A DNA stretch of 64,000 nt from Candidatus Eiseniibacteriota bacterium (GCA_963707915.1 OY970178.1:384001-448000); one strand, 5' to 3'. Positions 46,104-61,873 are shown, numbered from the stretch's first letter. Program-made: numbers and translations. Notes: generated from the letters alone by a model not told the origin.

Positions 46104-47164
46104 TGTGGAGTCTCACTAGGTTGTTCACAGGTTGAGACTGTTCAACCGGGGTCCTTCTGACAGATGTTGGTGGTGTTCGAAGCCGTCAACGTCTGACCAG
46201 CGAGGAACCCCGGATGAACCTCCACAGTGGAGCACGGACCTGCCCTGCCAGTCGAGCACTGCTTGTTGGCCGGGTACGGGAGTCGGGCTGGAGCGTGACC
46301 CGAGCGGCCACGGCCGCAGGGATCAGCCGCCGGACGGCCCACAAGTGGCTGGGCCGCTACCAGGCCGAGGACTCGGCCAGCCTGCAGGACCGCAGCTCGC
46401 GGCCTCGGCGCCACCCCCACGCGACCCCGATCGAATGGCGGGAGATGATCCTGCTGCTGCGGCGCACGAGGATGACCGGGCCGCAGATCGCCCGGGACCT
46501 GAAGCGTCCGCGGGCAACGGTGGCGCGGGTGCTCAAACGCGCCGGGCTGGAACGGCTCCAGAAGCTCGAGCCGCAGGAGCCCGCGAACCGCTACCAGCAT
46601 CGTCGCCCGGGGGACCTGCTCCACTTCGACGTCAAGAAACTGGGGCGGATCAGTGGCTTCTACGGTCACCGCATCACCGGAGACCGCCGGCGACGGGGTC
46701 ATCGGGTGGGCTGGGACTACGTGCACGTCGCCATCGACGACCGCAGCCGGATCGCCTATGCCGAGGTGCTGCGGGACGAGACCGGCGTGACCTCGGCAGC
46801 GTTCCTGCGTCGTGCTGTGGCCTGGTTCCGCACCTTGGGCATCCGCATCCGCCGAATCCTCAGTGACAACGGCTCGGGCTACCTCGCGCGCTGCTTTGCT
46901 CACGAGGTGGAACGGCTGCGCTTGGTCCACAAACGTACGCGGCCCTACCGCCCGAGGACGAACGGCAAGGCCGAGCGCTTCATCCAGACCCTGATCCGCG
47001 AGTGGGCCTACGGGGCCGCCTACCTGACCTCCGAGGTCCGGGCCCGCGTCCTGCCCCGCTGGCTTCGCTACTACAACCAGAGACGTCCACACGGTAGTCT
47101 GGACGGCCTACCACCCTTCAGTCGGTTGCGACCCCGGGTGAGAACAACGTCCTGAGACTCCACA
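46104..47164 (+). mobile_element. IS481-family insertion sequence (copy 2), intact
   Basis: Terminal inverted repeat TGTGGAGTCTCA...TGAGACTCCACA. 6-bp target duplication CCTAGC at 46098-46103 and 47165-47170. Confidence 0.95.
46214..47155 (+). CDS. IS481-family transposase
   Basis: Motifs MNLHSGART, PGDLLHFDVKKLG, HVAIDD, SDNG, TNGKAERFIQT, YNQRRPH. Confidence 0.96.
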   Translation: MNLHSGARTCPASRALLVGRVRESGWSVTRAATAAGISRRTAHKWLGRYQAEDSASLQDRSSRPRRHPHATPIEWREMILLLRRTRMTGPQIARDLKRPRATVARVLKRAGLERLQKLEPQEPANRYQHRRPGDLLHFDVKKLGRISGFYGHRITGDRRRRGHRVGWDYVHVAIDDRSRIAYAEVLRDETGVTSAAFLRRAVAWFRTLGIRIRRILSDNGSGYLARCFAHEVERLRLVHKRTRPYRPRTNGKAERFIQTLIREWAYGAAYLTSEVRARVLPRWLRYYNQRRPHGSLDGLPPFSRLRPRVRTTS

Positions 47165-48122: not shown

Positions 48123-48319
48123 GGGTCCATTCTCCAGCGACGCGTGAGCCCGACCGCCGGCTCGCAAGCGTCGGGACGGGGCAACTGCGGCATCCTACCA
48201 GATGCGCAGGAACGTGCGGCACCCGTCGTGACCTCGCCCCCGCGGCCGAGCCGCTCCGGCACCTGGGCGCGGCAAAGGTGCGGCCGTCCCGCCGTCGGGT
48301 CCCGGAGGGATCCCGCCGC

Positions 48320-48961
48320 CTACCCGCCGAACAGGGCCTGCGGCTTTACGCGGAACGACTCGTTGAACAGGACGACCACGAGGCCGACGTACGCCGCGAG
48401 CCCCAGGACGATCAGCCACTGAGCCGTGGACGTCTTCTGGATGGCCTGCCGCGATCCTGCGTCACACGTCTCTCCAGGGCAGTACTGCGCCTTCTCGCGA
48501 TAGACCAGCGAGTAGACCTTGCAGCCGAGGCAGATGCCGAAGGCGGTCTCGAAGAACAGGAAGATGAGGCAGGCGAGACAGATGAGGCCGGAGATCATGC
48601 CGTAGGTGTTCATCACGTTCACGAGGACGAACATCGCCGAGACCAGGACCACGCCGATGATCCAGGCGAACCGCTTCTGCTGCGCGCCGACGTATTCGGG
48701 GACCTGGTTCCTGACGATCAGCCGGCCGAGGATCAGCGAAGGGGAGAACCGGGGATTGATGAAGACGCGGATCATGATGTCCGGGAGGAAGATCGCGACC
48801 GCGTACTTCAGGAGCAGGAAGTTCTCCTTGAGGCCGGCGGCCATCACGGAGATGAACATCATCAGGAACAGCAGGCCGGCCGCCGCGCGGATCTCCCGCT
48901 GGTTCAATACGGGGATGCGATACCCTTCCACGTCCTCTCCGAACCTGAAGATCCTGCTCAT
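48320..48961 (-). CDS. DUF4395-type membrane protein
   Basis: Motifs EIRAAAG, QKRFAW, FETAFGICLGC, CPGETC. Confidence 0.8.
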   Translation of the reverse strand: MSRIFRFGEDVEGYRIPVLNQREIRAAAGLLFLMMFISVMAAGLKENFLLLKYAVAIFLPDIMIRVFINPRFSPSLILGRLIVRNQVPEYVGAQQKRFAWIIGVVLVSAMFVLVNVMNTYGMISGLICLACLIFLFFETAFGICLGCKVYSLVYREKAQYCPGETCDAGSRQAIQKTSTAQWLIVLGLAAYVGLVVVLFNESFRVKPQALFGG

Positions 48962-49138
48962 GCGGCGTTCCCTTTCCACCGATGGACTGCGCAAGTGCGG
49001 GCGACTCCTGGCGCCCCTGGGCGAACGTCCATCATGCAGGATAGCCGGGTCGACCGGCGCCCCGAAAGTGACCGGCGCGAGGTGCGATCCGTCGAGCGCG
49101 GGGTCCCGCGGGATGTCCGAGCAGCGGGCCTTCGCCGG

Positions 49139-50374
49139 TCAGTCTTCCTGCGGCCAGCCGTACTCCCGCGCGATCGCCCGGACGATCTCCATGGCGAGCA
49201 GGTTGCCCTTGGCGCCGTTGGTCATGACGACCGCCCCCTGGCCGGACTCCGGATAGCCGACCAGCCAGCAGGTCGCGCCGGGCCAGTTGTCGCCTGGATG
49301 GAGGAAGGACAGGCCCGGCCCCCGGCCGTGGAGCAGGATTCCGAGTCCGTCGGACAGGGGCATCCCCAGCAGCTCGGGGTCGAGTTCCACCTGCGGCTGG
49401 AACATCTCCCGGGCGGTCGCCTGCGAGAACAGCCGCTCCGAGCGCCCCTGCCGGGCGAGCATCAACTCGATCGTGAAGCGAGCCAGGTCGGAGGGGGTCG
49501 TCATCAGGCCGCCCTGGGCCAGGGCGGTCGGGTGCATCGCCGGCTCCTGGACCGCCCCCTCCTGGTCGTGCGGCAAGGCCTCTTCGGCGCGCAGCCTCGG
49601 CGCCAGCGGATAGATGAAGGTGCTGGACCGCATGCCCAGCGGCCGGAAGACGATCTCGTCCACGATGCGTGTGAGCGGCCTTCCGGTGACGTCTTCCAGG
49701 ATCATCTGGATCACCGCGTAGCCGACGTTCGAGTACTCCCAGCTCGTGCCGGGGACCGTCCCCACGATCGCGGGCTTGTTCCGGGCGGGGGGCTCGCCGT
49801 TCAGGACCTGGACCAGCGTGGGCGGCGTGTCGTCCCAGCCCATGTTGGTCGAGGGCAGGCCGGCCTGGTGCGTCAGCAGCAGGCGCAAGGTGACCTTGTG
49901 GTCCCGCGTGAGGTCGCTGGCGGGGGTCCGCCAGGACTTCAGGTAAGTGTCGACGTCCGCGTCGAGGTCGAGTTGGCCGCGTTCGACCAGATGCATGACG
50001 GTCGCCGCCACCACGGCCTTGCTGGTCGAAGCGGCTTCGAAGCGGGAGTCCGGAGTCGCCGGCGCGCGACCGCCGGCCTGGAGAAGCCCGTATCCCTTGG
50101 CCCACTGGATCCGGAAGCCGTCGATGACGGCGATGCTCACCCCCGGAATGCGGTAGAACGCCATGCGCTCGGACAGCGTCGCAGTGTTCGCCGGCCCCCG
50201 GCCGGCGGAGTCGGCGGATGCCGGTGCGCCCGCCGACAACCCGTTCTCGATGCGCCATGCCCGCTGTTCGGGCCGTGGCGCCGGCACATCGAGCGCCCGC
50301 GCCTCGAGAGTCGAGCACGAGGCGAAGGCGATCACGGCGGCGAGCAGGTGGGGCGGGGAGATCCGCGGCATCAT
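49139..50374 (-). CDS. Serine hydrolase, beta-lactamase class C-like (S12)
   Basis: SxxK (ASTSK), LLTHQAG, YSN, AQGGL, HPG. Signal or lipoprotein peptide. Confidence 0.9.
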   Translation of the reverse strand: MMPRISPPHLLAAVIAFASCSTLEARALDVPAPRPEQRAWRIENGLSAGAPASADSAGRGPANTATLSERMAFYRIPGVSIAVIDGFRIQWAKGYGLLQAGGRAPATPDSRFEAASTSKAVVAATVMHLVERGQLDLDADVDTYLKSWRTPASDLTRDHKVTLRLLLTHQAGLPSTNMGWDDTPPTLVQVLNGEPPARNKPAIVGTVPGTSWEYSNVGYAVIQMILEDVTGRPLTRIVDEIVFRPLGMRSSTFIYPLAPRLRAEEALPHDQEGAVQEPAMHPTALAQGGLMTTPSDLARFTIELMLARQGRSERLFSQATAREMFQPQVELDPELLGMPLSDGLGILLHGRGPGLSFLHPGDNWPGATCWLVGYPESGQGAVVMTNGAKGNLLAMEIVRAIAREYGWPQED

Positions 50375-50669
50375 GGGAGCCTCTCGAGTGGCTTGGGAAT
50401 TGGCGACCGCCCGCCGGATGGCGCCGGCGGGCCGTTCCGGCGGCCGGTCCGCCGGCGCTGTAGCGACGGACCCGCCCCGGGCTGGATGTGGGACCGCATG
50501 GATGGACCGCGATCGCGCGGCGAGAGGTTTCGGCGCGACCCGGATCGTCCACGAACGCACCCTTTCCGATGACGGGTGCACGGGGTACGGCCTTCACTCT
50601 CCTGTGCGCCCGCGGTGCAGAAGCGGACCGAGCCAATCACCGGCGGCACCCGCGACCCGCGAACCTGCA

Positions 50670-51087: not shown

Positions 51088-51117
51088 GTGTGACGCGGAG
51101 GCCGTTGCTGTCTCCAA
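51088..51117 (+). promoter_or_regulatory. Putative ECF promoter upstream of the FG-GAP gene
   Basis: GTGTGACG-N16-CTCCAA, with the same boxes and spacing as 58682-58711. Confidence 0.7.
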
Positions 51118-51174
51118 GCGGTGTCCACGATGCCGTGCACGTCCACCCGCCTGCATCCCGATGTGAGGAGCGTC

Positions 51175-54100
51175 ATGTCTGAAATCCACCTGGGGATATC
51201 CGGCCGTCGTTGCGCCCTCGGGCTGTTCCTGCTGTTGTCGCTCGGCGTTGTCTTCGTGGGGATCCAGGCCTGGTCCCGGGACAGGCACCACGGACGACCG
51301 CGCTCCTCGCCGCTGCCCGGGGGAAGGGCGATTCCGGCCAGTTGGTGGGCCCAGGTCCAGCAGCGCATTGCGGCCGAGGAGTACAACGCGACCCCACAAG
51401 CGGGCTTGCTCCAGGCCCCGAATCGCGCGCAGGGCTTCCGTACGATCTTCACGAGCGAGGGAATCGAGGTCGTGCCCCGGGTCGGTGCGGCGGAATGGCG
51501 CCTGCGCTGGCGAACCGTGTCGTGGGGCCGGGAAGGCGCACTTGCCACCGTGGCCACCGTGCCCCCTCGCGCACAGGAGGCGCGGGTCGAGTACGAGCGC
51601 GGGCCGCTCGTCGAGTGGTACGAGAATCGGCCCGAGGGGGTCGAGCAGGGTTTCACGATCTCGGGCCGTCCGCGAGGGGAAGGCGGGGTGCGCATCCGGG
51701 GGCGGTTCAAAGCCGAGGGATTCGAGCTGCAGCCCGCCGCGAACGAGCGAGGCCTGACGTTGCGGAACCGCGTGGATGCAGCGGTGCTCACGTACGCCGG
51801 GCTGGTCGCGCGGGACGCGCGCGGAATCGAGCTGCCCTCGCGACTTGACCTGCGGGGAAGCGACGTCGAACTGGTCGTCGACGACCGGAGCGCGCGTTAC
51901 CCCGTCACGATCGATCCGCTGCTCTCGGCCCCTTCGTGGACGCACGAGGGCGACCTGGCCAATGCCCAGTACGGCTTCTCGGTGGCGACGGCGGGCGATG
52001 TGAACGCCGACGGCTTCAGCGACCTGCTCGTGGGCGCCCCGGGCTACGACAACGGTGCCCTGAAGAGCCTCGGTCGCGCGTTCCTCTACCTGGGTGCGGT
52101 CGACGGCCCGTCCGTGGTCGCCGATTGGAGCGCGCAAGCCGGCTTCCTCGGCGGTCCGGGCGCGTTCGGGGAGTCGGTGGCGTCGGCGGGCGACGTGAAC
52201 GGCGATGGCTACTCCGATGTGATGATCGGGGCGCCCCAGATCTCGAACGGTCCGGAGGCCTCCGAGGGGCACGTGTACCTGTGGCTCGGCGGACCGAGCG
52301 GTGGCGCAGGAGGTGCCTCCGGAATGGGCGCCAACGGCACGGCAGCGAACGCCGACTGGTTCGCCCAGGCCGACCTGCACGACGCGCGCCTCGGTTACTC
52401 GATCGCGTTCACCGGCGACCTGAATGGTGACGGCTACGACGACGTCGCACTCGGCGCGCCCGGCTACTCGAACGGTGAAGCGAGCGAGGGCATGGTGTTC
52501 GTATGGTTCGGCGCCGCCACCGGCTTGGGAGCCAATGGGACGCCCGCGAACGCCGACTGGTCCGCCCAGGGCAACGCGGCGAACATCGCGTTCGGCCACT
52601 CGGTCGCGGGCGCCGGCGACGTGAACGCGGACGGCTACGCCGACCTGCTGGTGGGCGCACCGCTCGCCAACTTCGCGTTCCTCTACCTGGGCAGCGCCAC
52701 CGGGCTGGGCGCCCCGGGCACGCCGCTCAACGCCGACTGGTCGGCGAACGGCACGCAGGCCGGCGCGCAGTTGGGTTACAGCGTGGCGACGGCCGGCGAT
52801 GTCAATGCCGACGGATATTCCGACGTGATCATCGGCGCGCCCTACTACGACGATCCGACGCTCGACGAGGGCAAGGCGTTCGTCTGGCTCGGCGGACCGA
52901 GCGACCTCGGCGCCAATGGCAACCCCGCGAACGCGGCGTGGTCGTATCGCGGAGGCACCAACGCGGCAAGATGCGGATGGAGCGTGGCGACGGCGGGCGA
53001 CGTGGACGGCGACGGGTTCGCCGACGTCGTCGTCGGCGTCCCCGGGTACTCGGGCGGCCAGGACAGTGAAGGGCGCGTGGTGGCGTTCCGCGGCTCGGGC
53101 TCGGGGCTGGGCACGCTGTCGTTCTGGAGCTACCAGAGCAACCAGTCGGGCGCGCAGCTCGGCGCGTCGGTCGCGACGGCCGGCGACGTCAACGGCGACG
53201 GGTTCGCGGACATCGCCGTCGGCGCCTGGCTCTTCCACGGCGACCTCTCCGACGAGGGTCAGGCGGCCGTGTTCTTCGGCCGCGCCTACGGGCCTGAGAC
53301 AACGGCGTCCTGGATCGGCGAGAAGAACGTGGCCGGGGCCCGGCTGGGCGAGCGCGTGGCTGCCGCGGGCGACGTGAACGGCGACGGCTACAGCGATGTC
53401 CTGGTGGCCGCGCCCTACTATGACGGCGGCAACGCGGACGAGGGGCGGGTCTACCTGTTCGTCGGACAGCCCACCGGGCTGGCGCTGAACCACTCGTGGA
53501 GCGCCGAGGGCAACCAGACCTCCGCGTTCCTCGGCGGCGGGATCGGCGCGGCCGGGGACGTGGACAACGACGGCTACGACGATGTGCTGATCGGCGCCCC
53601 CCTCTACGACAGCGGCGGAATGCAGGACAACGGCGCGGTGTTCCTGTGGCGCGGCGGGCCCGCGGGGCTCGGCGTGGACGGCACGCCTGCGAACGCGAGC
53701 TGGAGACAGGACGGCACGCAGAGCGGCGAGTACCTCGGCCTGTCCGTGTCCGGTGCGGGCGACGTGAACGGGGACGGGTTCGCCGACGTGGTCGTGGGCG
53801 GCTACGGGTGGAGCAACGGCCAGGCGGGCGAGGGACACGCGCTCCTCTTCCTCGGCGCCAGCACTGGCCTGGCGGCCGCACCCGCGTGGTCGGCCGAGGG
53901 GAACCAGGCGGGGATGAGGTTCGGCTACACCGTCGCCAGCGCGGGCGACGTGAACGCCGATGGGTTCGGCGACGTGATCGTCGGCGCACCCGAGTACTCG
54001 GGGGGGCAGGCTTCGGAGGGCCGCGCGTACGTGTTCCTGGGCGTACAGGGCGGGCTCGCGGTCGTCGCGCAGTGGACTGCCGAAGGGAACGTGGCCCAGG

Positions 54101-55338
54101 CCTATTTCGGGCACTCCGCGGCCTCGGCGGGTGACGTGAACGGCGACGGCTACTCCGACGTGATCGTCGGCGCCTACGGCTACGATGGCGATCAGGTGGC
54201 CGAGGGGCGCGCGTTTGTCTACCACGGCTCCGCCGTGGGAGTCGGCGCCGCCCCCGCCTGGACCGCGGAAAGCAACCAGTCGGCCTCGCAATTCGGCATC
54301 TCCGTCTCGTCGGCAGGAGACGTGAACGGGGACGGCTACAGCGACATCGTGGTGGGCGCTCCCGGTTACCAGACCGGCGGCGTGTCCACGGGAAGCGCCT
54401 TCATCTGGCTCGGAGGCTCCAGCGGGCTGGGCGCGAACGGTTCGCCGCTCAACGCCGACTGGAACGACAACGGCGCCCAGTTGGGCGTCCAGGGCATGAG
54501 CTTCGGTGACGCGGTCGCATGCGCGGGCGACGTGGACGGCGACGGCTTCAGCGACGTCATCATCGGCGCGCCATACGCCGACGACGGCGAAGTGGATGAG
54601 GGCGCCGCGTTCGTGTTCTACGGGAACCTCGGTCACGGCATGGACCGCGCGGTGCAGCAGCGGCGCCACGACGACGCCAGCCGTGTCGGCCTGCAGAACT
54701 TCTCGAGCTCGGAGACGGCGTTCCGCATCCGCTCGCTCGCGCGCAGTGCCGGCGGCCGGGCGCACGTCCGGCTCGAGTACGAACTCCGCTCGCTCGGGGG
54801 GCCGTTCGAGCCGGGCAACGCCGGGCGAAGCCCGGCATGGAGCTCGACCGGGGTCCCGGGCGCGCGGGGGAGCGTGATCGCGCTGGACGACTACGTCGGG
54901 CTGCCGGAGGGGGGGGGTGTGATCCGCTGGCGCACGCGCGTGGTGACCGATTCTCCGCTATTCCCGCACGGCCCGTGGCTCTCGATCCCCGGCAATGGCC
55001 GTACGGAGGGCGACATCCGGCTGTTGAACGGCGTGCTGGCCGTCGGTCCACTCGCCGCCGGGGAGCTGTCGTTCGCGCTCGCCGGTCCGAACCCGTTCCG
55101 CGACCGTCTCGCGCTGTGCTTTGTCCTGCCCGCGCCCAGCCATGTACGGCTCGAAGTGTTCGATGCCGGCGGCCGCAGAGTGACCACGCTGGTGAACGGT
55201 GCGCTGCCGGCGGGAGTGCACGCAGCGGCCTGGAACGGACGAGACGACGCCGGGCATCCGTCGCCCACCGGGATCTACTTTGCGAGGCTCACCGCGGGTT
55301 CGGTTTCGCGCACGTTGAAGACGATTCGCGTCAGCTAG
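51175..55338 (+). CDS. Large secreted FG-GAP (integrin-alpha-like) repeat protein with FlgD-Ig-like C-terminus
   Basis: 14 GD[V/L][N/D]xDGxxD repeats. N-terminal domain EWY.N...GVEQGF..YPVTIDP. GAGGAG RBS. Confidence 0.92.
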   Translation: MSEIHLGISGRRCALGLFLLLSLGVVFVGIQAWSRDRHHGRPRSSPLPGGRAIPASWWAQVQQRIAAEEYNATPQAGLLQAPNRAQGFRTIFTSEGIEVVPRVGAAEWRLRWRTVSWGREGALATVATVPPRAQEARVEYERGPLVEWYENRPEGVEQGFTISGRPRGEGGVRIRGRFKAEGFELQPAANERGLTLRNRVDAAVLTYAGLVARDARGIELPSRLDLRGSDVELVVDDRSARYPVTIDPLLSAPSWTHEGDLANAQYGFSVATAGDVNADGFSDLLVGAPGYDNGALKSLGRAFLYLGAVDGPSVVADWSAQAGFLGGPGAFGESVASAGDVNGDGYSDVMIGAPQISNGPEASEGHVYLWLGGPSGGAGGASGMGANGTAANADWFAQADLHDARLGYSIAFTGDLNGDGYDDVALGAPGYSNGEASEGMVFVWFGAATGLGANGTPANADWSAQGNAANIAFGHSVAGAGDVNADGYADLLVGAPLANFAFLYLGSATGLGAPGTPLNADWSANGTQAGAQLGYSVATAGDVNADGYSDVIIGAPYYDDPTLDEGKAFVWLGGPSDLGANGNPANAAWSYRGGTNAARCGWSVATAGDVDGDGFADVVVGVPGYSGGQDSEGRVVAFRGSGSGLGTLSFWSYQSNQSGAQLGASVATAGDVNGDGFADIAVGAWLFHGDLSDEGQAAVFFGRAYGPETTASWIGEKNVAGARLGERVAAAGDVNGDGYSDVLVAAPYYDGGNADEGRVYLFVGQPTGLALNHSWSAEGNQTSAFLGGGIGAAGDVDNDGYDDVLIGAPLYDSGGMQDNGAVFLWRGGPAGLGVDGTPANASWRQDGTQSGEYLGLSVSGAGDVNGDGFADVVVGGYGWSNGQAGEGHALLFLGASTGLAAAPAWSAEGNQAGMRFGYTVASAGDVNADGFGDVIVGAPEYSGGQASEGRAYVFLGVQGGLAVVAQWTAEGNVAQAYFGHSAASAGDVNGDGYSDVIVGAYGYDGDQVAEGRAFVYHGSAVGVGAAPAWTAESNQSASQFGISVSSAGDVNGDGYSDIVVGAPGYQTGGVSTGSAFIWLGGSSGLGANGSPLNADWNDNGAQLGVQGMSFGDAVACAGDVDGDGFSDVIIGAPYADDGEVDEGAAFVFYGNLGHGMDRAVQQRRHDDASRVGLQNFSSSETAFRIRSLARSAGGRAHVRLEYELRSLGGPFEPGNAGRSPAWSSTGVPGARGSVIALDDYVGLPEGGGVIRWRTRVVTDSPLFPHGPWLSIPGNGRTEGDIRLLNGVLAVGPLAAGELSFALAGPNPFRDRLALCFVLPAPSHVRLEVFDAGGRRVTTLVNGALPAGVHAAAWNGRDDAGHPSPTGIYFARLTAGSVSRTLKTIRVS

Positions 55339-55730
55339 GAGCCGGTCCGAGCGCTCGCAAGCGCGGCGCGCATGATCCGAGGATCCGGATGGTGCGCGCC
55401 GATCTTCATTCCGGCTCGTCGGGGAGCGAGTCGGAGGCGGTGCGGGCAGCGGGCGAACTCGCCGTGCGCCGCGGTGGGCGCAGGCGAGCCGCCATTCATG
55501 CGGGCCTCCACGCGACCTTGAGCTTCAGCAGGTTCGTGCACCGTGCAGACCAGCGACCACTCCTGACCGACCCGCTCCACGCCGCGCCACGATCACCTGC
55601 GCCCGATCGTCCAGCGACGCCTTCGCCGCCATCCGCCGCGGCCCGTACGTCACCGTGCGGTACGCGTTCAACAGCAGCGTCACCATCAGCCAGCGCGGCG
55701 CTCGCGACGGAACCGCGAATGACATATAGT
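55339..55730 (-). mobile_element. Internally deleted IS1182-family remnant (MITE-like)
   Basis: N-terminal-like LMVTLLLNAY..YGPRRMA..VIVA is joined directly to C-terminal-like RGVERVGQEWSLVCTVH/NLLKL. End TCGGACCGGCTC abuts CTAG. Confidence 0.7.
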
Positions 55731-55827
55731 CGAGTGTGGCGGTGAGGGCCGTCGCCGCCGACTGGGCATCCCCCGGTGGCCGAACCGACTGCAGTCGTCG
55801 CGCCTTCGGAGCGATGCGAACAGTGGA

Positions 55828-58719
55828 GTGTCGGCCGTGCGCCTGGTCGTAGAGCTCGGACTGCTGCTGCTATCGGGTGCCACGTGTCTGCCGCGTGCGA
55901 CCCTCGCGGTCGCGGCGCCCGCCGCGGTGGCCGAAGCGGACTCGCTCGCCCGCGGAGGCCATGTGCCTGCCGCGCTCGCCACACTCGATCGCCTCCTGCG
56001 TCAGCTGCACCCGCCGGCCGATGCGCCCACGCGCCGCCGGGCCTTGCTCCTGGAGGCGCGCCTGCTGGCGCTCAGCGGGCATTCCGGGGCGGCCGAGGCC
56101 GCGGCGCGCGAGGCGCTTGCGGGCGCCGAGGCCACGGGCGACTCGGCCCAGCTCGGCGAGGCGCTGCGCTGGATGGCCTATGGCGCCGGCGCGCAGGGCC
56201 GGGTCGCCGACGCGGCCGCGCTCTGGTCTCGACTCCTGAACGTGGCGCGGGCGCGCGGGGACCGCGAGCGAGTGGGCTACGCCCATTATGGGCTGGGCTA
56301 CGCCGCCCAGATTGCCCGGGACCTGCCGCGGGCGCGTCGCGAGTACGCGCACGCGGCGGAGGTGTTCCGCGCGCTGGAGCTGGCGCCCTTCGACCAATGG
56401 GCCCTGGCGGCCCACGCCAGCGCCTGTGCTTCGCTCGGAGATTTCGGCGCCGCCCGCGCCGGCTACCGCGAGGCGATCGCGCTGGGCCGGCGGCGCGGGG
56501 ATGCGATGGGCGAGGGGAGGGCGCTCAACGATCTCGGCGCGCTCGAGTTCGAGTTCGGAGATCCGGCGTTGGCGCTCGGGCTCTACGAGCGGGCGCTGGT
56601 CGTCGCTCGTGGCCGCGGCGATGCGGCCGGCGCTCTCACTCCGCTGCGCAATGTCGCTGTGGCGCTCACATACCTCGGCCACCTCGACGATGCCGCCGCG
56701 CGGATCGAAGAGGGTCTCGGGACGAGCGGCCGGCTCGGACTGGCGGTGCAGACCTCCGAGCTGCTGGAGCAGCTGGCGTACGTCCGCGGCCAGCAGGTGC
56801 GCCTGCACGAGGCCACCCGGCTGTTCCGTCGCTGCATCGCTCTGGACGACTCGCTGGGACGGCAGGACAACGCCGAGCCGGTGCTCGGTTTGGCGGCCTG
56901 CCTCGGGGTGATGGACAGCACCGACGCCGCGCTCGAACTGCTTCGCACCCGTCTCGAGCCTCGGCGCGGGGAGCTCGGCGAGTACGATCGGCTGAAGCTC
57001 GACCGGCAGTGGGCGGAGCGGCTGGAGGAAGCCGGACGCTACCCCGAGGCGCTGGCCCATTCCCGCGCCGTGGAGCGGGCGGCGCAGCGGCTCGGGGTCG
57101 CGAGCATTCAGTTCTCGGAGCGCACGACGGCGGCGCGATGCGAACGGGCGCTTGGCAGGCCGGACCGAGCGCTCGCTCAGCTTCGGCGCGGGGCGCGCGA
57201 TTGGGAGGAATTGCGCACCACCCAGCGCGAGCCCGAGTGGCGCGAGCGCCTCGGCGACGAGCGCCGCGAGCTGTACACCGAGCTGGCCGACCTGCTGATC
57301 GAGTACCCGGCCGAACTCCCGGCCGGGGAGCGGATACGACGCGCGCTCGAGGCCGTTCAACGATTCAAGGCGCGCACGCTCTACGAACGGGCGCGCGGGC
57401 CGGCGGCAGCACCTCTGCCACCGGCAGCGTACGAAGCGGTTGGCTTGCGCGAACTGCAGACCGCTGTGCTTCGACCGGGCGAGGCGCTGGTGGATGCCTA
57501 CATCGGCCGCCGGTTGGGCATCGTCTTCATCGTCACGCGCGATACCTGCCTGGCGCGGCGGGTGCCGATCGCCGCCAGTGGTCTGGGGATGCGGCTGCGG
57601 CGGTTCCGGGAGTACCTGGCCACCCCGCCTGCCGGCGCCGGGCTCGACGGCGCGGCGCCCGGGTCCGCCGCATCGCACTCGCTCCTCACGCCCGCTGCGA
57701 AAGCGCGGCGGACGATGCTGGCCAGCGCCGCTCGCGGGATACGCCGCGAGTTGTTCGGGGATGATGCACCATGGCTCGCGCGCCAGCGTCGGCTGCTGTT
57801 CTGCCTCGACGGTCCGCTCACGGCGATTCCGCCGGGTGTGTTGATCCCGGGGAGCCCGGAGGCCGGTCCGCTCATTGGGAGCCCCGAGGTGGTGGTCGTG
57901 CCCTCGGCAACGTTGCTCGCCGAGTCGCGGCGATCTGCCACGGGCCCGCTTGTGCGCAAGCCCGGTGCCCTGCTGTTACTGGCATCGGGCTCGGGTCCAG
58001 GGCGCACCGTCCTGCGCGGCGCCGAACGCGAGGCGCGCTGGTTGGCCGGGCGATTCACGACCATCGCATCCGAGAGCCTGGCCCGCATCGCGAAGGGCCC
58101 GGATTCCGCTCCGCCCCGCTGGTTGCGCGGGTGCGCGGCGCTCCACGTGGCCGCCCACACGGAGCTCGATGACCAGCGTCCATGGCGGTCGGGTATCCGG
58201 CTCCCCGGGGTCGCGGATGCGTCCGGGGATTCGCTGCTGCGTGCCGGACGCATCGCGCTGCTGCGGCTTCCGGTCGGGCTTGCGGTGTTGTCCGCATGCG
58301 AGACGGCCGGTCAGCGCGCGCCATCCGGCGAGGGCATGCTCGGGCTTTCCAGCGGCTTCCTCGCTTCCGGCATCCCCGCGGTCGTCGCCAGCCTGTGGCC
58401 GGTCAGCGATCTTGCGACCGCCCAGCTCATGGAAGTCTTCTACGATGGACTCGACCGCGGCCTGAGTGTGGCCGCGGCGCTGCGCCGGGCGCAGCTCGCG
58501 CTGGCCGGTCGCGACCCGACCCGGGACCCGTTCTACTGGGCGGGCTTCGTCGTGATCGGCGAGGGTGACGCCCGCGCCGTGCTGCGACGCCGCCGGATCC
58601 CATCGCCGGCCAACGCGGCGGCAGCGCTTGTCCTTGCGCTGGGGGGGATTGCGGCCGTGCGCGGATGGCGAAGGCGGACGCGTGTGACGGGGCGTGTCGC
58701 TGGGACTCCAATGCTATGA
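55828..58719 (+). CDS. TPR-CHAT (caspase-like) domain protein with signal peptide and C-terminal membrane anchor
   Basis: TPR-like helices (ALNDLG, LRNVA); CHAT motifs DGPL, LHVAAH, VLSACET, GEG, SLWPVSD, FY, PFYWAGF; C-terminal TM followed by RGWRRR. Confidence 0.9.
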   Translation: MSAVRLVVELGLLLLSGATCLPRATLAVAAPAAVAEADSLARGGHVPAALATLDRLLRQLHPPADAPTRRRALLLEARLLALSGHSGAAEAAAREALAGAEATGDSAQLGEALRWMAYGAGAQGRVADAAALWSRLLNVARARGDRERVGYAHYGLGYAAQIARDLPRARREYAHAAEVFRALELAPFDQWALAAHASACASLGDFGAARAGYREAIALGRRRGDAMGEGRALNDLGALEFEFGDPALALGLYERALVVARGRGDAAGALTPLRNVAVALTYLGHLDDAAARIEEGLGTSGRLGLAVQTSELLEQLAYVRGQQVRLHEATRLFRRCIALDDSLGRQDNAEPVLGLAACLGVMDSTDAALELLRTRLEPRRGELGEYDRLKLDRQWAERLEEAGRYPEALAHSRAVERAAQRLGVASIQFSERTTAARCERALGRPDRALAQLRRGARDWEELRTTQREPEWRERLGDERRELYTELADLLIEYPAELPAGERIRRALEAVQRFKARTLYERARGPAAAPLPPAAYEAVGLRELQTAVLRPGEALVDAYIGRRLGIVFIVTRDTCLARRVPIAASGLGMRLRRFREYLATPPAGAGLDGAAPGSAASHSLLTPAAKARRTMLASAARGIRRELFGDDAPWLARQRRLLFCLDGPLTAIPPGVLIPGSPEAGPLIGSPEVVVVPSATLLAESRRSATGPLVRKPGALLLLASGSGPGRTVLRGAEREARWLAGRFTTIASESLARIAKGPDSAPPRWLRGCAALHVAAHTELDDQRPWRSGIRLPGVADASGDSLLRAGRIALLRLPVGLAVLSACETAGQRAPSGEGMLGLSSGFLASGIPAVVASLWPVSDLATAQLMEVFYDGLDRGLSVAAALRRAQLALAGRDPTRDPFYWAGFVVIGEGDARAVLRRRRIPSPANAAAALVLALGGIAAVRGWRRRTRVTGRVAGTPML
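58682..58711 (+). promoter_or_regulatory. Putative autoregulatory ECF promoter (near-leaderless sigma transcript)
   Basis: GTGTGACG-N16-CTCCAA ending 4 nt before the sigma ATG at 58716. Confidence 0.7.
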
Positions 58720-59306
58720 CTGGACCGGAATCACGACAGGTCCCCGATGCAGAGCTGGTGCGTCTTGCGCAGGCCGAACGGGGCCACGCGCGGGGACGCG
58801 CGGCGGCCGAGCAGCTCTTCGGTCGCTATCATGGGCGGGTCTTCGCGTGGTGCCTGAGGCGGGTGCGAAATCGGGACGAAGCCTACGACCTGGCGCAGGA
58901 CGTGATGTTGAATGCCTACAGGGCGCTGCCGGCCTTTGCCGGCGAGTCGAGCTTCTCGACCTGGCTCTACGTGATCGCGCGCAATCGTTGTGGGCGTGCG
59001 ATGAGGAGGATGAGCTTGGTGCGCGACGAGGCGCAGGAGCCGGACGCCCTGCCTTCCAGCGGAGCCTCTCCCGATGACGAGGTGTCGGGGCGATTGGAGC
59101 AGGAGGCCGTGCTCGACCTGATGCGCCGGCACCTCGAGCCGCGGGAGCAGATCGCACTCTGGCTGCGCTGCTACGAGGGGATGGACGTGGCGCAGATCAC
59201 TGAAGCACTCGGTATTGCCACGGCCTCGGGCGCACGTGGCATGTTGCAGACGGCGCGACGCAAGCTGCGCGCGGCGCGCGAGCACCCGTCCACGCAAGGG
59301 GAATGA
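58716..59306 (+). CDS. ECF sigma-70 factor
   Basis: Motifs DAELV, AYDLAQDV, FSTWLYVIARN, and a region 4 HTH. ATGA-coupled to the CHAT gene. Confidence 0.92.
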   Translation: MTGPESRQVPDAELVRLAQAERGHARGRAAAEQLFGRYHGRVFAWCLRRVRNRDEAYDLAQDVMLNAYRALPAFAGESSFSTWLYVIARNRCGRAMRRMSLVRDEAQEPDALPSSGASPDDEVSGRLEQEAVLDLMRRHLEPREQIALWLRCYEGMDVAQITEALGIATASGARGMLQTARRKLRAAREHPSTQGE

Positions 59307-59310
59307 CGCC

Positions 59311-60036
59311 ATGGACGACCGCTGTCCTTCCGATCCGGAATTCGCGGCAATGATCGAGCTTCCCGAGGGCGATACCGGACGCGCTCACGTGGAACGCTGT
59401 CCGCGCTGTCAGGCGCGCCTGATCGACCTGAACGCATTCCTTCGGCCCGCCACAGAAGCGGAGATCCCCGGACTCGCGTCCGTCGAACGGCGGATGGCAG
59501 CCGCGCTCGAAGCCGAGATGGAACGGGACGCGGCGTCCGCGGCCCCGCGTCCCGTCCCATCCGGGCCCGCCGATACGGCTTCAGCGCGGCCGACCCGCAC
59601 CGGGGCGCTCGTGCACCTCTGGAACCGGCCGGCCTGGGTGATGGCTGCCGCTGCTGCCGCGCTCGTGATGGTCGCCGGAGTGTTCGCGCTGTGGCCGCAT
59701 GCGCCGGGCGGCGATGCACTGAGAGGGACCTCGGGTCCCGGCAACGCCGCGAACCGTCAGGTGCACGTGTTCCCGGCCCGCATCGAGGGCGCGCGGGCCA
59801 TCCTGCGCTGGAGGGCGGTCCCCGGTGCCGACTCGTACCTGGTGAGCCTGTTCGGCTCCGACCTGGCCGAACGTGGGCGGCTCGGCCCGCTGGCCGGTAC
59901 GGCGATCGGACTTCCGCTCGACACGCTTGCCGCCGGGGGCGGACCGGCCGGACCGCTGGTGTGGCAGGTCATCGCGCTGAGAGCCGGGGACGAACTCGCA
60001 CGCTCGGCGCTGCAGACGGCGCTGCCAGAACGCTAG
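59311..60036 (+). CDS. Zinc-binding (zf-HC2/ZAS) transmembrane anti-sigma factor
   Basis: HVERCPRC (HxxxCxxC), a TM segment WVMAAAAAALVMVAGVFALW, then LRG and an FN3-like LRWRAVPGADSYLVSL. Confidence 0.82.
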   Translation: MDDRCPSDPEFAAMIELPEGDTGRAHVERCPRCQARLIDLNAFLRPATEAEIPGLASVERRMAAALEAEMERDAASAAPRPVPSGPADTASARPTRTGALVHLWNRPAWVMAAAAAALVMVAGVFALWPHAPGGDALRGTSGPGNAANRQVHVFPARIEGARAILRWRAVPGADSYLVSLFGSDLAERGRLGPLAGTAIGLPLDTLAAGGGPAGPLVWQVIALRAGDELARSALQTALPER

Positions 60037-60412
60037 TGAACAAGACTCTCTTGGGCACACTTGGCATGATGGCCCCCGGTTGGACGGTGCCCGAGTTGGC
60101 GGGCGCTCGTGGCTCCATGGGGTGCGGCTGCCCCGCCTGCCCCGATCAGGCGCCGGACCGCCGTATCAGGGAAGCGTGCGGGCCGTGGCCTCGCTCCAGG
60201 CGGCGATCGGAGCCGCAGTCTGAGCGCGGAGCAGCGCGCCGGGATGCTCCCGTTCCATGCTTTCGGGACAGGGACGCTCCATCTGGCGCTCCGCTCGCGG
60301 TCCCGGCGCCGCGATCCCGTGCCGGCGTGGCTGGGATTTGCCGGGCCGGGAGAGTCGGTCCTGGAGTAGAATAGAGGTCCCAACGAAGCCCTCTGACCCG
60401 GGAGGTCGCGCC

Positions 60413-61873
60413 ATGCGCAAGGCTGGAACGTTCCTTCTCGTCTGTGCCGGGATTCTGTGCCTGCTGCACGAGACCGTCGACGCGCAAGTGCCGCCTGCTC
60501 CCCGAGGCGCAGAGCAACCAATGCTGGCTTCGCTGGATTGGCGCAACGTCGGCGGACACAACTATGTCAGCGGCGTTCGCGACCAGGGACAGTGCGGCTC
60601 CGACTGGGCCTTCGTGACGGTCAGCATGCTCGAGTCGGCGCTGATGATCCGGCTCGGACTGCCCGACGTCGACCTGGACTACTCCGAACAGCGCCTCCTT
60701 TCCTGCGGCATTCCCTATAGCGGCTGTAATGGCGGCCAACCGTCCGGTGCTCTGAACTACCTTCGGGACACCGGCACGCCGCGCGAGACGTGCTTCCCGT
60801 ACCAGGCGAATGACCAGGTGCCCTGCAGTGCGGCTTGCGCGGACGCCGCGAACCAGATCCGGCGTCTGCAGAGCTGGCGGTGGGTCGGCGGGTACACGGG
60901 AGCGCCCATCGATTCCCTGAAGGCGGCGCTCGCTTACGGGCCGATCGGGGTCTGGATGGACGTCTACGACGACTTCTACCACTACGCGGGCGGAGTCTAT
61001 TGGCATGTTCCGGGAGGAAGCCCCGTGGGTAGCCACTATGTCCTCGTCATCGGCTATGACGACGCCCAGCAGTACTGGATCGTGAAGAACAGCTGGGATA
61101 CCTGGTGGGGCGACCAGGGCTTCTTCCGCATCGCGTATGTGAACAATTGCAGGTTCGGGGACTGGGCGACGGCATGCACGGCGGCGATTCCCCCGATCAA
61201 CTGGTGCAACCTGCAGTGGCCGCCGGCGTTGAACGCGACCGCCGGTGTGGCGAGCGACCTGGTCTTCGGGCAGCTGTGGATCGATGTCGTGACGAGTCAC
61301 CCGGGCGCGACGCCCGAACTCGTGGCCGAACTGGGCTACGGACCGGACGGGAGCGATCCGTCCGCGGACCCGGCCGGATGGCAGTGGACGCCGGCCGCGT
61401 ACAACCTCGACGTCGGCGCCAACGACGAGTTCATGGCCAGGGTCACCGTGGCCACGCCCGGGGAGTACGACTACTGCTACCGTTACTCGTACTTCGGCGG
61501 ACCGTGGCGGTACGCCGACCTGGACGGCACCAACAACGGTTACTCGCCGGCCCAGGCCGGGGCGCTCACCGTGACCTCGGCGAGTGCGGCGGAGGACGGA
61601 CTTCCGGCACAGCTGTCGTTCGCGCTGCAGGGCGGAAACCCGTTCGTCGGATCCGCGCGATTCCGCCTCGGACTGCCGCAGCGGACCAGGGTCGAGCTCT
61701 CGATCCACGACGTGACCGGCCGGCGCCTGGCGACACTGGCGTCGGGCGAACTCGACGCCGGCTATCACACGCTGACCTGGGAGGGCGAAGGCACGGTGCA
61801 GGCGGGAGCGTACTTCGCCCGGCTCCACGCCGACGGCAGATCGTTCACACGGAAACTCACGGTGCTGCGTTAG
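60413..61873 (+). CDS. Papain-like (C1A) domain protein, catalytic Cys replaced by Asp, with FlgD-Ig-like C-terminus
   Basis: Motifs LDWRN, RDQGQCGSDWAF, SEQ, GCNGG, HYVLVIGY, WIVKNSW. Signal peptide and GGAGG RBS. Confidence 0.9.
   Translation: MRKAGTFLLVCAGILCLLHETVDAQVPPAPRGAEQPMLASLDWRNVGGHNYVSGVRDQGQCGSDWAFVTVSMLESALMIRLGLPDVDLDYSEQRLLSCGIPYSGCNGGQPSGALNYLRDTGTPRETCFPYQANDQVPCSAACADAANQIRRLQSWRWVGGYTGAPIDSLKAALAYGPIGVWMDVYDDFYHYAGGVYWHVPGGSPVGSHYVLVIGYDDAQQYWIVKNSWDTWWGDQGFFRIAYVNNCRFGDWATACTAAIPPINWCNLQWPPALNATAGVASDLVFGQLWIDVVTSHPGATPELVAELGYGPDGSDPSADPAGWQWTPAAYNLDVGANDEFMARVTVATPGEYDYCYRYSYFGGPWRYADLDGTNNGYSPAQAGALTVTSASAAEDGLPAQLSFALQGGNPFVGSARFRLGLPQRTRVELSIHDVTGRRLATLASGELDAGYHTLTWEGEGTVQAGAYFARLHADGRSFTRKLTVLR

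Follow-up and report, generated by a model that had tools for sequence, protein, structure and literature searches.

The window examined here, a stretch of 64,000 nucleotides (nt) from an uncultured soil bacterium, Candidatus Eiseniibacteriota bacterium (GCA_963707915.1 OY970178.1:384001-448000), numbered from its first letter, raises the question of why a protein combining tetratricopeptide repeats (TPR) with a caspase-like CHAT domain is encoded directly before a sigma factor of the extracytoplasmic function (ECF) type and its anti-sigma factor, and which further gene this sigma factor controls. A sequence-only reading of the region had proposed that CHAT, once activated by a ligand bound to the TPRs, cuts the anti-sigma ectodomain outside the cytoplasm and thereby induces both the sigma factor and an FG-GAP protein encoded upstream. 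The analysis reported here points to a conserved three-gene module with its own promoter and a surface-protein target, probably operating by a split version of the mechanism proposed for the DdvA/DdvS pair, and on balance this is the explanation that we favor as a whole. Five genes, all on the + strand, and two predicted promoters are considered, in a region with a G+C content of about 72%:

51089..51117, + strand: predicted sigma-type promoter of the FG-GAP gene (TGTGACG, 14 nt, GTCTCCAA; exact match)
51175..55338, + strand: FG-GAP protein, 1387 amino acids (aa) (Pfam FG-GAP E 8.6e-111 over 14 stretches; FlgD_ig E 3.9e-10)
55828..58719, + strand: TPR-CHAT protein, 963 aa (Pfam CHAT E 2.8e-47, TPR_12 E 2.4e-11)
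58683..58711, + strand: predicted promoter of the sigma gene itself, within the 3' end of the CHAT gene (TGTGACG, 14 nt, GACTCCAA, then 4 nt to the ATG)
58716..59306, + strand: ECF sigma factor, 196 aa (Sigma70_r2 E 1.7e-16; TIGR02937 80.4 bits)
59311..60036, + strand: single-pass anti-sigma factor, 241 aa (homolog alignment, structure model and Foldseek)
60257..61873, + strand: papain-family (C1) peptidase with a tail resembling those of the type IX secretion system (T9SS) (Pfam Peptidase_C1 E 1.5e-47)

The CHAT/sigma/anti-sigma module

Sequence comparison shows that the CHAT, sigma and anti-sigma genes form a conserved module, with paralogous copies, in Eiseniibacteriota and relatives. CHAT homologs with E <= 1e-10 were found in 148 of the 206 genomes of the phylum, usually several per genome. 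When the 29 best non-self loci were searched by tblastn with the window proteins, 27 had a sigma homolog next to CHAT and 28 had an anti-sigma homolog; the genes run CHAT-sigma-anti-sigma at 24 loci and sigma-anti-sigma-CHAT at 3. A pattern scan using one genome per species yielded 79 loci, 13 of which have all three homologs adjacent; these originate from Eisenbacteria, one Latescibacteria record, one Krumholzibacteriia record and further metagenome-assembled genomes. For the more remote matches to CHAT, which come from Aminicenantes, Acidobacteriota and Bacteroidota, a search at E <= 1e-4 revealed no homolog of sigma closer than 4 kb. The genome from which the window was taken contains a second CHAT-sigma-anti-sigma module (G000:C1:3151084-3155241). 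A different layout is seen at L026/L048 and L011/L037, where CHAT adjoins an anti-sigma homolog and no sigma factor is detectable between or beside them.

The CHAT domain of the window protein (PF12770) scores 162 bits against a cut-off of 24 and is preceded by about 11 TPR-like helix pairs. The motifs LHVAAH and LSACET are both present, and H773, H777 and C824 are invariant in all 26 aligned homologs, which share 32-42% identity. The occurrence of HT instead of the usual HG had been taken as a reason to doubt protease activity, but the residue following H777 is never G in the 26 homologs (it is T in 10 of them), so HT is the norm in this CHAT family. Proteolytic activity of CHAT is predicted from the conserved His/Cys pair only. 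The CHAT body is predicted to be exported and held by a C-terminal membrane anchor, as had already been read from the window alone: a hydrophobic signal-like segment follows a basic stretch in 25 of the 26 homolog N-termini to which a start was given (the 26th, L004, ends at a contig edge), and a C-terminal hydrophobic helix of 18-22 residues followed by Arg/Lys is found at all 30 C-termini inspected (29 homologs plus the window protein). The AlphaFold2 (AF2) model of the protein, with a predicted local distance difference test (pLDDT) value of 84.5 and a predicted template modeling score (pTM) of 0.78, consists of a long TPR solenoid, the CHAT fold and a terminal helix. Foldseek ranked DdvA first for this model (8rw5, E 7.6e-13, 15% identity), followed by Csx29 and separases, with TM-scores for the CHAT matches that are low (0.28-0.46), as expected with long flexible multi-domain chains. 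A phmmer search of PDB sequences with CHAT returned TPR proteins only and no detectable similarity to DdvA, and the protein-database homolog search with CHAT was swamped by TPR words and gave only 12 matches.

The regulatory partners correspond to what the sequence-only reading had named, an ECF sigma factor and an HxxxCxxC transmembrane (TM) anti-sigma factor with an FN3-like ectodomain. By sequence, the sigma factor belongs to the ECF (group 4) sigma-70 proteins: its TIGR02937 score lies well above the cut-off of 42.9 bits, Sigma70_r4_2 (23.4 bits) falls just below its cut-off of 25.7, and a comparison with PDB sequences retrieved ECF sigma factors at E 5e-11. The anti-sigma gene begins 5 nt after the sigma stop codon, and its product has the features of a class I zinc-binding anti-sigma (ZAS) protein, namely, an N-terminal H-x3-C-x2-C motif in a helical domain and a gene next to that of the sigma factor. 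The full pattern in the N-terminal helical domain is C-x20-H-x3-C-x2-C; of the 23 anti-sigma homologs, 20 retain C5 and 22 retain each of H26, C30 and C33. The protein matched no Pfam family, and its NCBIfam anti-sigma score was 16.9 bits against a cut-off of 100. In the AF2 model (pLDDT 80.3), helices at 8-76 and a TM helix at 107-127 are followed by a disordered stretch (128-150) and a beta-sandwich (157-232), for which Foldseek retrieved Fn3-like modules (5g56, E 4e-4; 3mpc_A, E 1.5e-3, TMt 0.62). In the ectodomain, W167 and Y176 are present in 23 of 23 homologs, and the linker, in a stretch with pLDDT below 50, contains a Leu-Arg-Gly whose residues recur in most of the 23 (L137 in 19, R138 in 22, G139 in 16). 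Sigma binding and inhibition by this protein are predicted. Departures from the zinc motif exist: the near-identical homologs from L030 and L032 have lost its His and both Cys in the alignment, the L030 sequence reading ...QALADPAVRAL...

The sigma promoter and its locus-specific second sites

A link between the sigma factor and the FG-GAP gene had been proposed on the basis of a motif placed before both genes, and this motif is indeed confined to the two sites. The sequence GTGTGACG-N16-CTCCAA matches exactly at 51088-51117 and 58682-58711, and two matches were obtained in 0 of 100 shuffles. In the 3.62-Mb genome, TGTGAC-N16-18-CTCCAA has only these two matches, both in the window (backwards control, 0), and there are exactly two copies of TGTGACG-N14-G[AT]CTCCAA, one preceding the sigma ATG and the other the FG-GAP gene. 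Because the two sites have different spacers between their boxes, the motif pair is not a duplicated stretch.

The element is also conserved in front of homologous sigma genes. Nearly all of these loci contain (T/C)GTGA(T/C) upstream of sigma, often followed by TCC, and later a GnnTCCnA box. Of 38 sigma loci, 34 have both the -35-like word and a start codon in frame; counted from the first base of this word, the start codon follows at exactly 33 nt in 25 of the 38 and at 32-34 nt in 29. Relative to the start codon, the boxes occupy -33 to -25 (TGTGAY itself -33 to -28) and -12 to -5 (GnnTCCnA), and no Shine-Dalgarno sequence is present between them. The second module of the genome has TGTGATTCC, 10 nt and CGGCGTTTC as its predicted promoter, with 4 nt separating its end from the second ATG in an ATGATG sequence. 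In the window, the -10 box likewise stops 4 nt short of the sigma ATG. This geometry would place the transcript start at the start codon and suggests that the sigma mRNA is leaderless. Boxes of the TGTGA type are catalogued as -35 elements of ECF22 (TGTGATTTT), ECF118 (TGTGAC) and ECF11 (GTGATC) in the accessible part of the Casas-Pastor 2021 supplement. From the comparison of loci only, the window sigma factor is predicted to use such two-box promoters, including that of its own gene. A search of sequencing runs for the stretch listed no RNA run, and the two DNA runs that it listed, both from one study, contain 0.09 and 0.05 of its words.

The CHAT stop codon and the sigma ATG at 58716 overlap (ATGA), an arrangement read earlier as translational coupling. 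Such coupling is not conserved; in 15 of the 24 CHAT-first loci the TGA inside the first promoter box is the CHAT stop codon. The promoter element is also present in three sigma-first loci and hence belongs to sigma and not to the end of the CHAT gene. In CHAT-first loci, the predicted promoter lies downstream of the CHAT gene, which is thus outside the predicted feedback loop.

In the predicted target in the window, 14 FG-GAP repeats lie between a signal- or anchor-like N-terminus and a FlgD_ig/T9SS-like tail at the C-terminus. Its transcript is predicted to start near 51121-51122, where a GTG (51121) is in frame; translation more likely begins at the ATG at 51175, which is preceded by GAGGAG. 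The tail scores 40 bits against 27 for FlgD_ig and 20.9 bits for Por_Secre_tail, which is below the 23-bit cut-off. A search for the T9SS sortase found a PorU-type homolog above its curated cut-off (464.9 versus 420 bits) at G000:C1:472003-475452. The tail of about 90 residues that the FG-GAP protein has in common with the C1 peptidase gave more than 40 tblastn matches across the genome. The PorU homolog and the occurrence of this tail on dozens of open reading frames (ORFs) fit surface secretion of the FG-GAP protein, and they suggest a large T9SS-type secretome in the phylum.

Twenty loci of up to 19.5 kb were fetched; together with the two modules of the genome, 19 had an assignable sigma promoter and were scanned, each with the boxes of its own sigma gene (9 + 9 nt, spacing within 1 nt). 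The scan returned 18 extra matches of at least 14/18, compared with 3 in reversed sequences. The best second site reached at least 16/18 in 7 of the 19 loci, as opposed to 5 of 342 non-cognate pairs in a cross control that applied to every locus the boxes of all the others, and at least 15/18 in 11 of the 19, as opposed to 31 of 342; since related loci are not independent (for example, L035/L043 and L042/L045), these ratios overstate the number of separate events. Two loci fetched later have a second site too (L057, 16/18; L058, 15/18). Most second sites are located just past the anti-sigma gene, or past CHAT in sigma-first loci, and most are 40-120 nt upstream of genes whose products have signal-like N-termini. 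These products include a beta-helix protein, two DUF6345 proteins, an outer membrane protein (OMP) barrel, an SBBP propeller with a Por_Secre_tail, and three proteins of about 820 aa, two of which have FlgD_ig tails by Pfam. At L034, the second site precedes an FG-GAP gene whose product is 43% identical to the FG-GAP protein of the window. For the second module of the genome, no convincing second cognate site was found within 10 kb, the best being 14/18. A scan of the genome allowing one mismatch per box gave 5 matches versus 5 in the control (N14), that is, background level, and therefore a wider regulon cannot be claimed. The fixed place of the element in homologs, its locus-specific copies near neighboring genes and the FG-GAP gene at L034 support the reading of the motif as the sigma factor's own promoter, and the promoter-target link from sigma to the FG-GAP gene is well supported by this comparison.

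Proposed mechanism and its alternatives

In the mechanism that we propose, the TPR-CHAT protein would read a signal outside the cytoplasm, upon which the anti-sigma ectodomain would be removed, probably by a cut in the disordered juxtamembrane linker near Leu-Arg-Gly. Intramembrane proteolysis would then free the sigma factor, which would raise its own expression and switch on a surface protein, here the FG-GAP protein. Overall, the locus would work like DdvA/DdvS divided over two polypeptides.

The cut by CHAT is an inference drawn from a complex prediction and from the linker. Leu-Arg-Gly, situated 10 residues past the TM helix in the disordered linker, is a candidate cut site. CHAT 45-922 and anti-sigma 129-241 were used as input for the complex prediction, which returned 'weak support' with a median score of 0.60 (runs of 0.58, 0.65 and 0.60), the best control scoring 0.01. 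The runs share at least 42% of contacts, with a partner pLDDT of at least 67. Of 157 solved complexes, 116 attain the mark applied, as do 2 of 215 mismatched pairs; the passes at scores of 0.60 or below comprise only 18 of the 157 solved complexes but both of the mismatches.

A predicted contact of this kind fits binding alone equally well. With the wiring otherwise as described, CHAT may act as a co-sensor or as a guard, bound to the FN3 ectodomain and protecting it from a general site-1 protease as RseB does for RseA, or it may cut itself or another envelope protein while a different protease removes the ectodomain. The position of CHAT outside the sigma feedback loop in CHAT-first loci agrees with such a role, as does the circumstance that the cleavage proposed for DdvA is a self-cleavage, described as not yet proven in the accessible text of PMC11506125. 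The invariance of the His/Cys pair at 32-42% identity argues instead for retained catalysis, and the conservation of Leu-Arg-Gly in an otherwise disordered linker also speaks for a cut at this place, so that we regard the guard or self-cleaving role as a serious but distinctly less probable account than cleavage of the anti-sigma factor by CHAT.

Alternatively, CHAT may be a protease that matures or turns over the cargo under sigma control, the FG-GAP protein in the window; its gene would then be located near the regulators for co-inheritance only, and it would have no signaling role. Both proteins are predicted to be extracytoplasmic, and their genes adjoin in the window. The cargo nevertheless varies from locus to locus (FG-GAP, beta-propeller, beta-helix, DUF6345 or OMP barrel) while CHAT, sigma and anti-sigma stay together, and CHAT therefore belongs to the regulatory core. 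The target gene mostly lies past the anti-sigma gene and does not adjoin CHAT, and the complex controls did not favor unrelated partners. A function in cargo processing is consequently improbable.

It is very improbable that the shared motif matches by chance, that it serves a different regulator as operator, or that it acts at the RNA level in CHAT-sigma translational coupling: although the promoter is known here from sequence alone, its -10 box ends so close to the ATG, and its conservation could be partly coding where the CHAT stop codon lies in the -35 box, only about 0.004 second exact sites are expected genome-wide from base composition (with none in the backwards control), the element occurs in three sigma-first loci with no CHAT gene upstream, the second copies precede unrelated genes and covary with the -10 box of their own locus, and the two-box geometry with a TGTGA-type -35 box matches ECF promoters in the accessible part of the catalogue mentioned above.

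Several points weigh against the preferred explanation, a split DdvA/DdvS-like switch, or against parts of it. On the regulatory side, 8 of the 19 scanned loci, the second module of the genome among them, have no cognate second site of at least 15/18, and the FG-GAP site of the window matches the boxes of its own sigma gene at 15/18 but the sigma promoter of another genome (L036) better, at 17/18. Two of the 29 loci (L011 and L026) have CHAT and anti-sigma without a detectable sigma factor, CHAT itself is outside the predicted loop in CHAT-first loci, and leaderless initiation is something that we infer from geometry alone. Concerning proteolysis, the complex prediction passed weakly and returned no interface, and such passes are more often wrong than right unless the guess was likely beforehand. 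Not every CHAT protease solved to date cleaves after Arg, and the topology predicted for CHAT was read from sequence.

A bolder and more tentative version, which we consider possible but rather unlikely in all its parts, is that Eiseniibacteriota and relatives have multiplied a 'split DdvA' switch in which a dedicated periplasmic caspase-like site-1 protease cuts its own anti-sigma factor at Leu-Arg|Gly, and a private -10 code pairs one leaderless ECF sigma factor with one T9SS surface protein. If this were true, the TPR arrays could sense different external signals, and a cell could switch on individual surface proteins accordingly.

Known systems and neighboring genes

Classical anti-sigma proteolysis proceeds through a site-1 and an intramembrane cut, as in the cleavage of RseA by DegS and then RseP, or in cell-surface signaling by Prc and then RseP. 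The window module resembles these systems in its single-pass anti-sigma factor, the site-1 removal of an ectodomain, the intramembrane cut and the autoregulated ECF promoter that are predicted for it. It differs in that its dedicated protease would be a caspase-like cysteine instead of a serine protease, with one such protease per paralogous module.

The sequence-only reading had chosen Csx29/Csx30 as comparator, a pair that DdvA/DdvS of Myxococcus xanthus now displaces (PMC11506125; PDB 8rw5 and 8rot), in which the periplasmic TPR-CHAT part is fused to the anti-sigma factor. According to the accessible text of that study, an ECF sigma factor is held there by a single-pass CHCC-type zinc anti-sigma with a periplasmic TPR-CHAT part of the separase/craspase type, and in the proposed course of events the periplasmic part is removed in a CHAT-dependent manner before RseP acts. 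DdvA is the best structural match of the window CHAT model, the C/H/C/C ligand pattern of the window anti-sigma recalls the CHCC zinc site of the DdvA N-terminus, and the Leu-Arg-Gly of its linker parallels the linker cleavage proposed for DdvA. TPR-CHAT is the C-terminal part of the anti-sigma factor in DdvA, whereas in the window it is encoded separately, as a protein that has a signal-like N-terminus and a C-terminal anchor of its own; what the anti-sigma factor carries in its place is a small FN3-like ectodomain. The His-Cys active site of DdvA is called incomplete in the same text, whereas the His/Cys pair of the window family is invariant, and DdvS controls a CBASS/CRISPR island, whereas the predicted targets of the window sigma factor are secreted or surface proteins. 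DdvA-like proteins were found by the authors, in the portion accessible, only in Myxococcota and one Comamonas. These are single polypeptides, unlike the window proteins, an anti-sigma factor of 241 aa and a TPR-CHAT protein of 963 aa with the sigma gene between them; therefore, the locus would work like DdvA but is not a member of the DdvA-like group. PDB sequence searches with CHAT, sigma and anti-sigma gave no link to DdvA/DdvS, and only the fold search gives one.

Craspase, the Csx29/Csx30 system of type III-E CRISPR (PMC10028731; PDB 8eey and 8d9g), shares the TPR-CHAT fold, at Foldseek ranks 2-3, and a CHAT substrate that controls a sigma factor. As described in the accessible text, it is cytoplasmic, RNA-guided and bound to Cas7-11, whereas the window CHAT is predicted to be exported and membrane-anchored; no CRISPR components were found among the genes annotated at 44.5-62 kb. 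Another relative is ECF54 of Actinobacteria, which, in the accessible part of the supplement of Casas-Pastor et al. 2021, is found near CHAT and TPR proteins and has a predicted -10 element with CTCC. That part lists ECF54 with no putative anti-sigma factor, as 100% actinobacterial, with subtilase and carboxypeptidase-regulatory-like neighbors and with GTATCAG at -35. The window sigma factor, from Eiseniibacteriota, with a zinc anti-sigma factor and TGTGAY at -35, differs from ECF54 in these respects and falls outside that group. In the literature searched, with most subscription journals outside it, no account was found of an exported CHAT protein encoded separately alongside an ECF/anti-sigma pair, nor anything about the sigma factors of Eisenbacteria.

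To our knowledge, DdvA is the sole anti-sigma factor with a periplasmic TPR-CHAT part to have been characterized, and its trigger and cleavage step are still hypotheses. A natural two-protein version would allow protease and substrate to be expressed, mutated and mixed separately, and the intact catalytic pair, the small FN3 ectodomain and the candidate cleavage motif would make the proposed caspase-like site-1 step directly testable. What the locus adds to the known systems is a lineage-wide promoter code, a fixed and apparently leaderless geometry, and locus-specific target promoters, as read from the loci compared. The locus-specific boxes are a ready set of predicted orthogonal sigma/promoter pairs, and the promoter boxes give a first regulatory logic for the surface proteins of an uncultured phylum.

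Some observations concern the remainder of the region. The gap between the FG-GAP and CHAT genes is unusually long (490 nt, 55339-55827); the own-box scan found no cognate sigma site in it, and its ORFs belong to no Pfam family. A scan for consensus sigma-70 promoters gave 0 sites, and terminator-like sites numbered 3 against 3.9 expected by chance. The C1 peptidase, which has the same kind of FlgD_ig/T9SS-like tail as the FG-GAP protein, starts 220 nt past the anti-sigma gene. Because this gap contains no cognate sigma site of at least 14/18 in the own-box scan, membership of the peptidase in the module is uncertain; it may be expressed by read-through from sigma or independently. Directly upstream of the FG-GAP promoter is an ORF of 764 aa (48278-50572, +) that matched no Pfam or NCBIfam family, and about 4 kb upstream of the same promoter an IS481-family transposase is encoded (46214-47155, +; rve_3/LZ_Tnp_IS481/rve).

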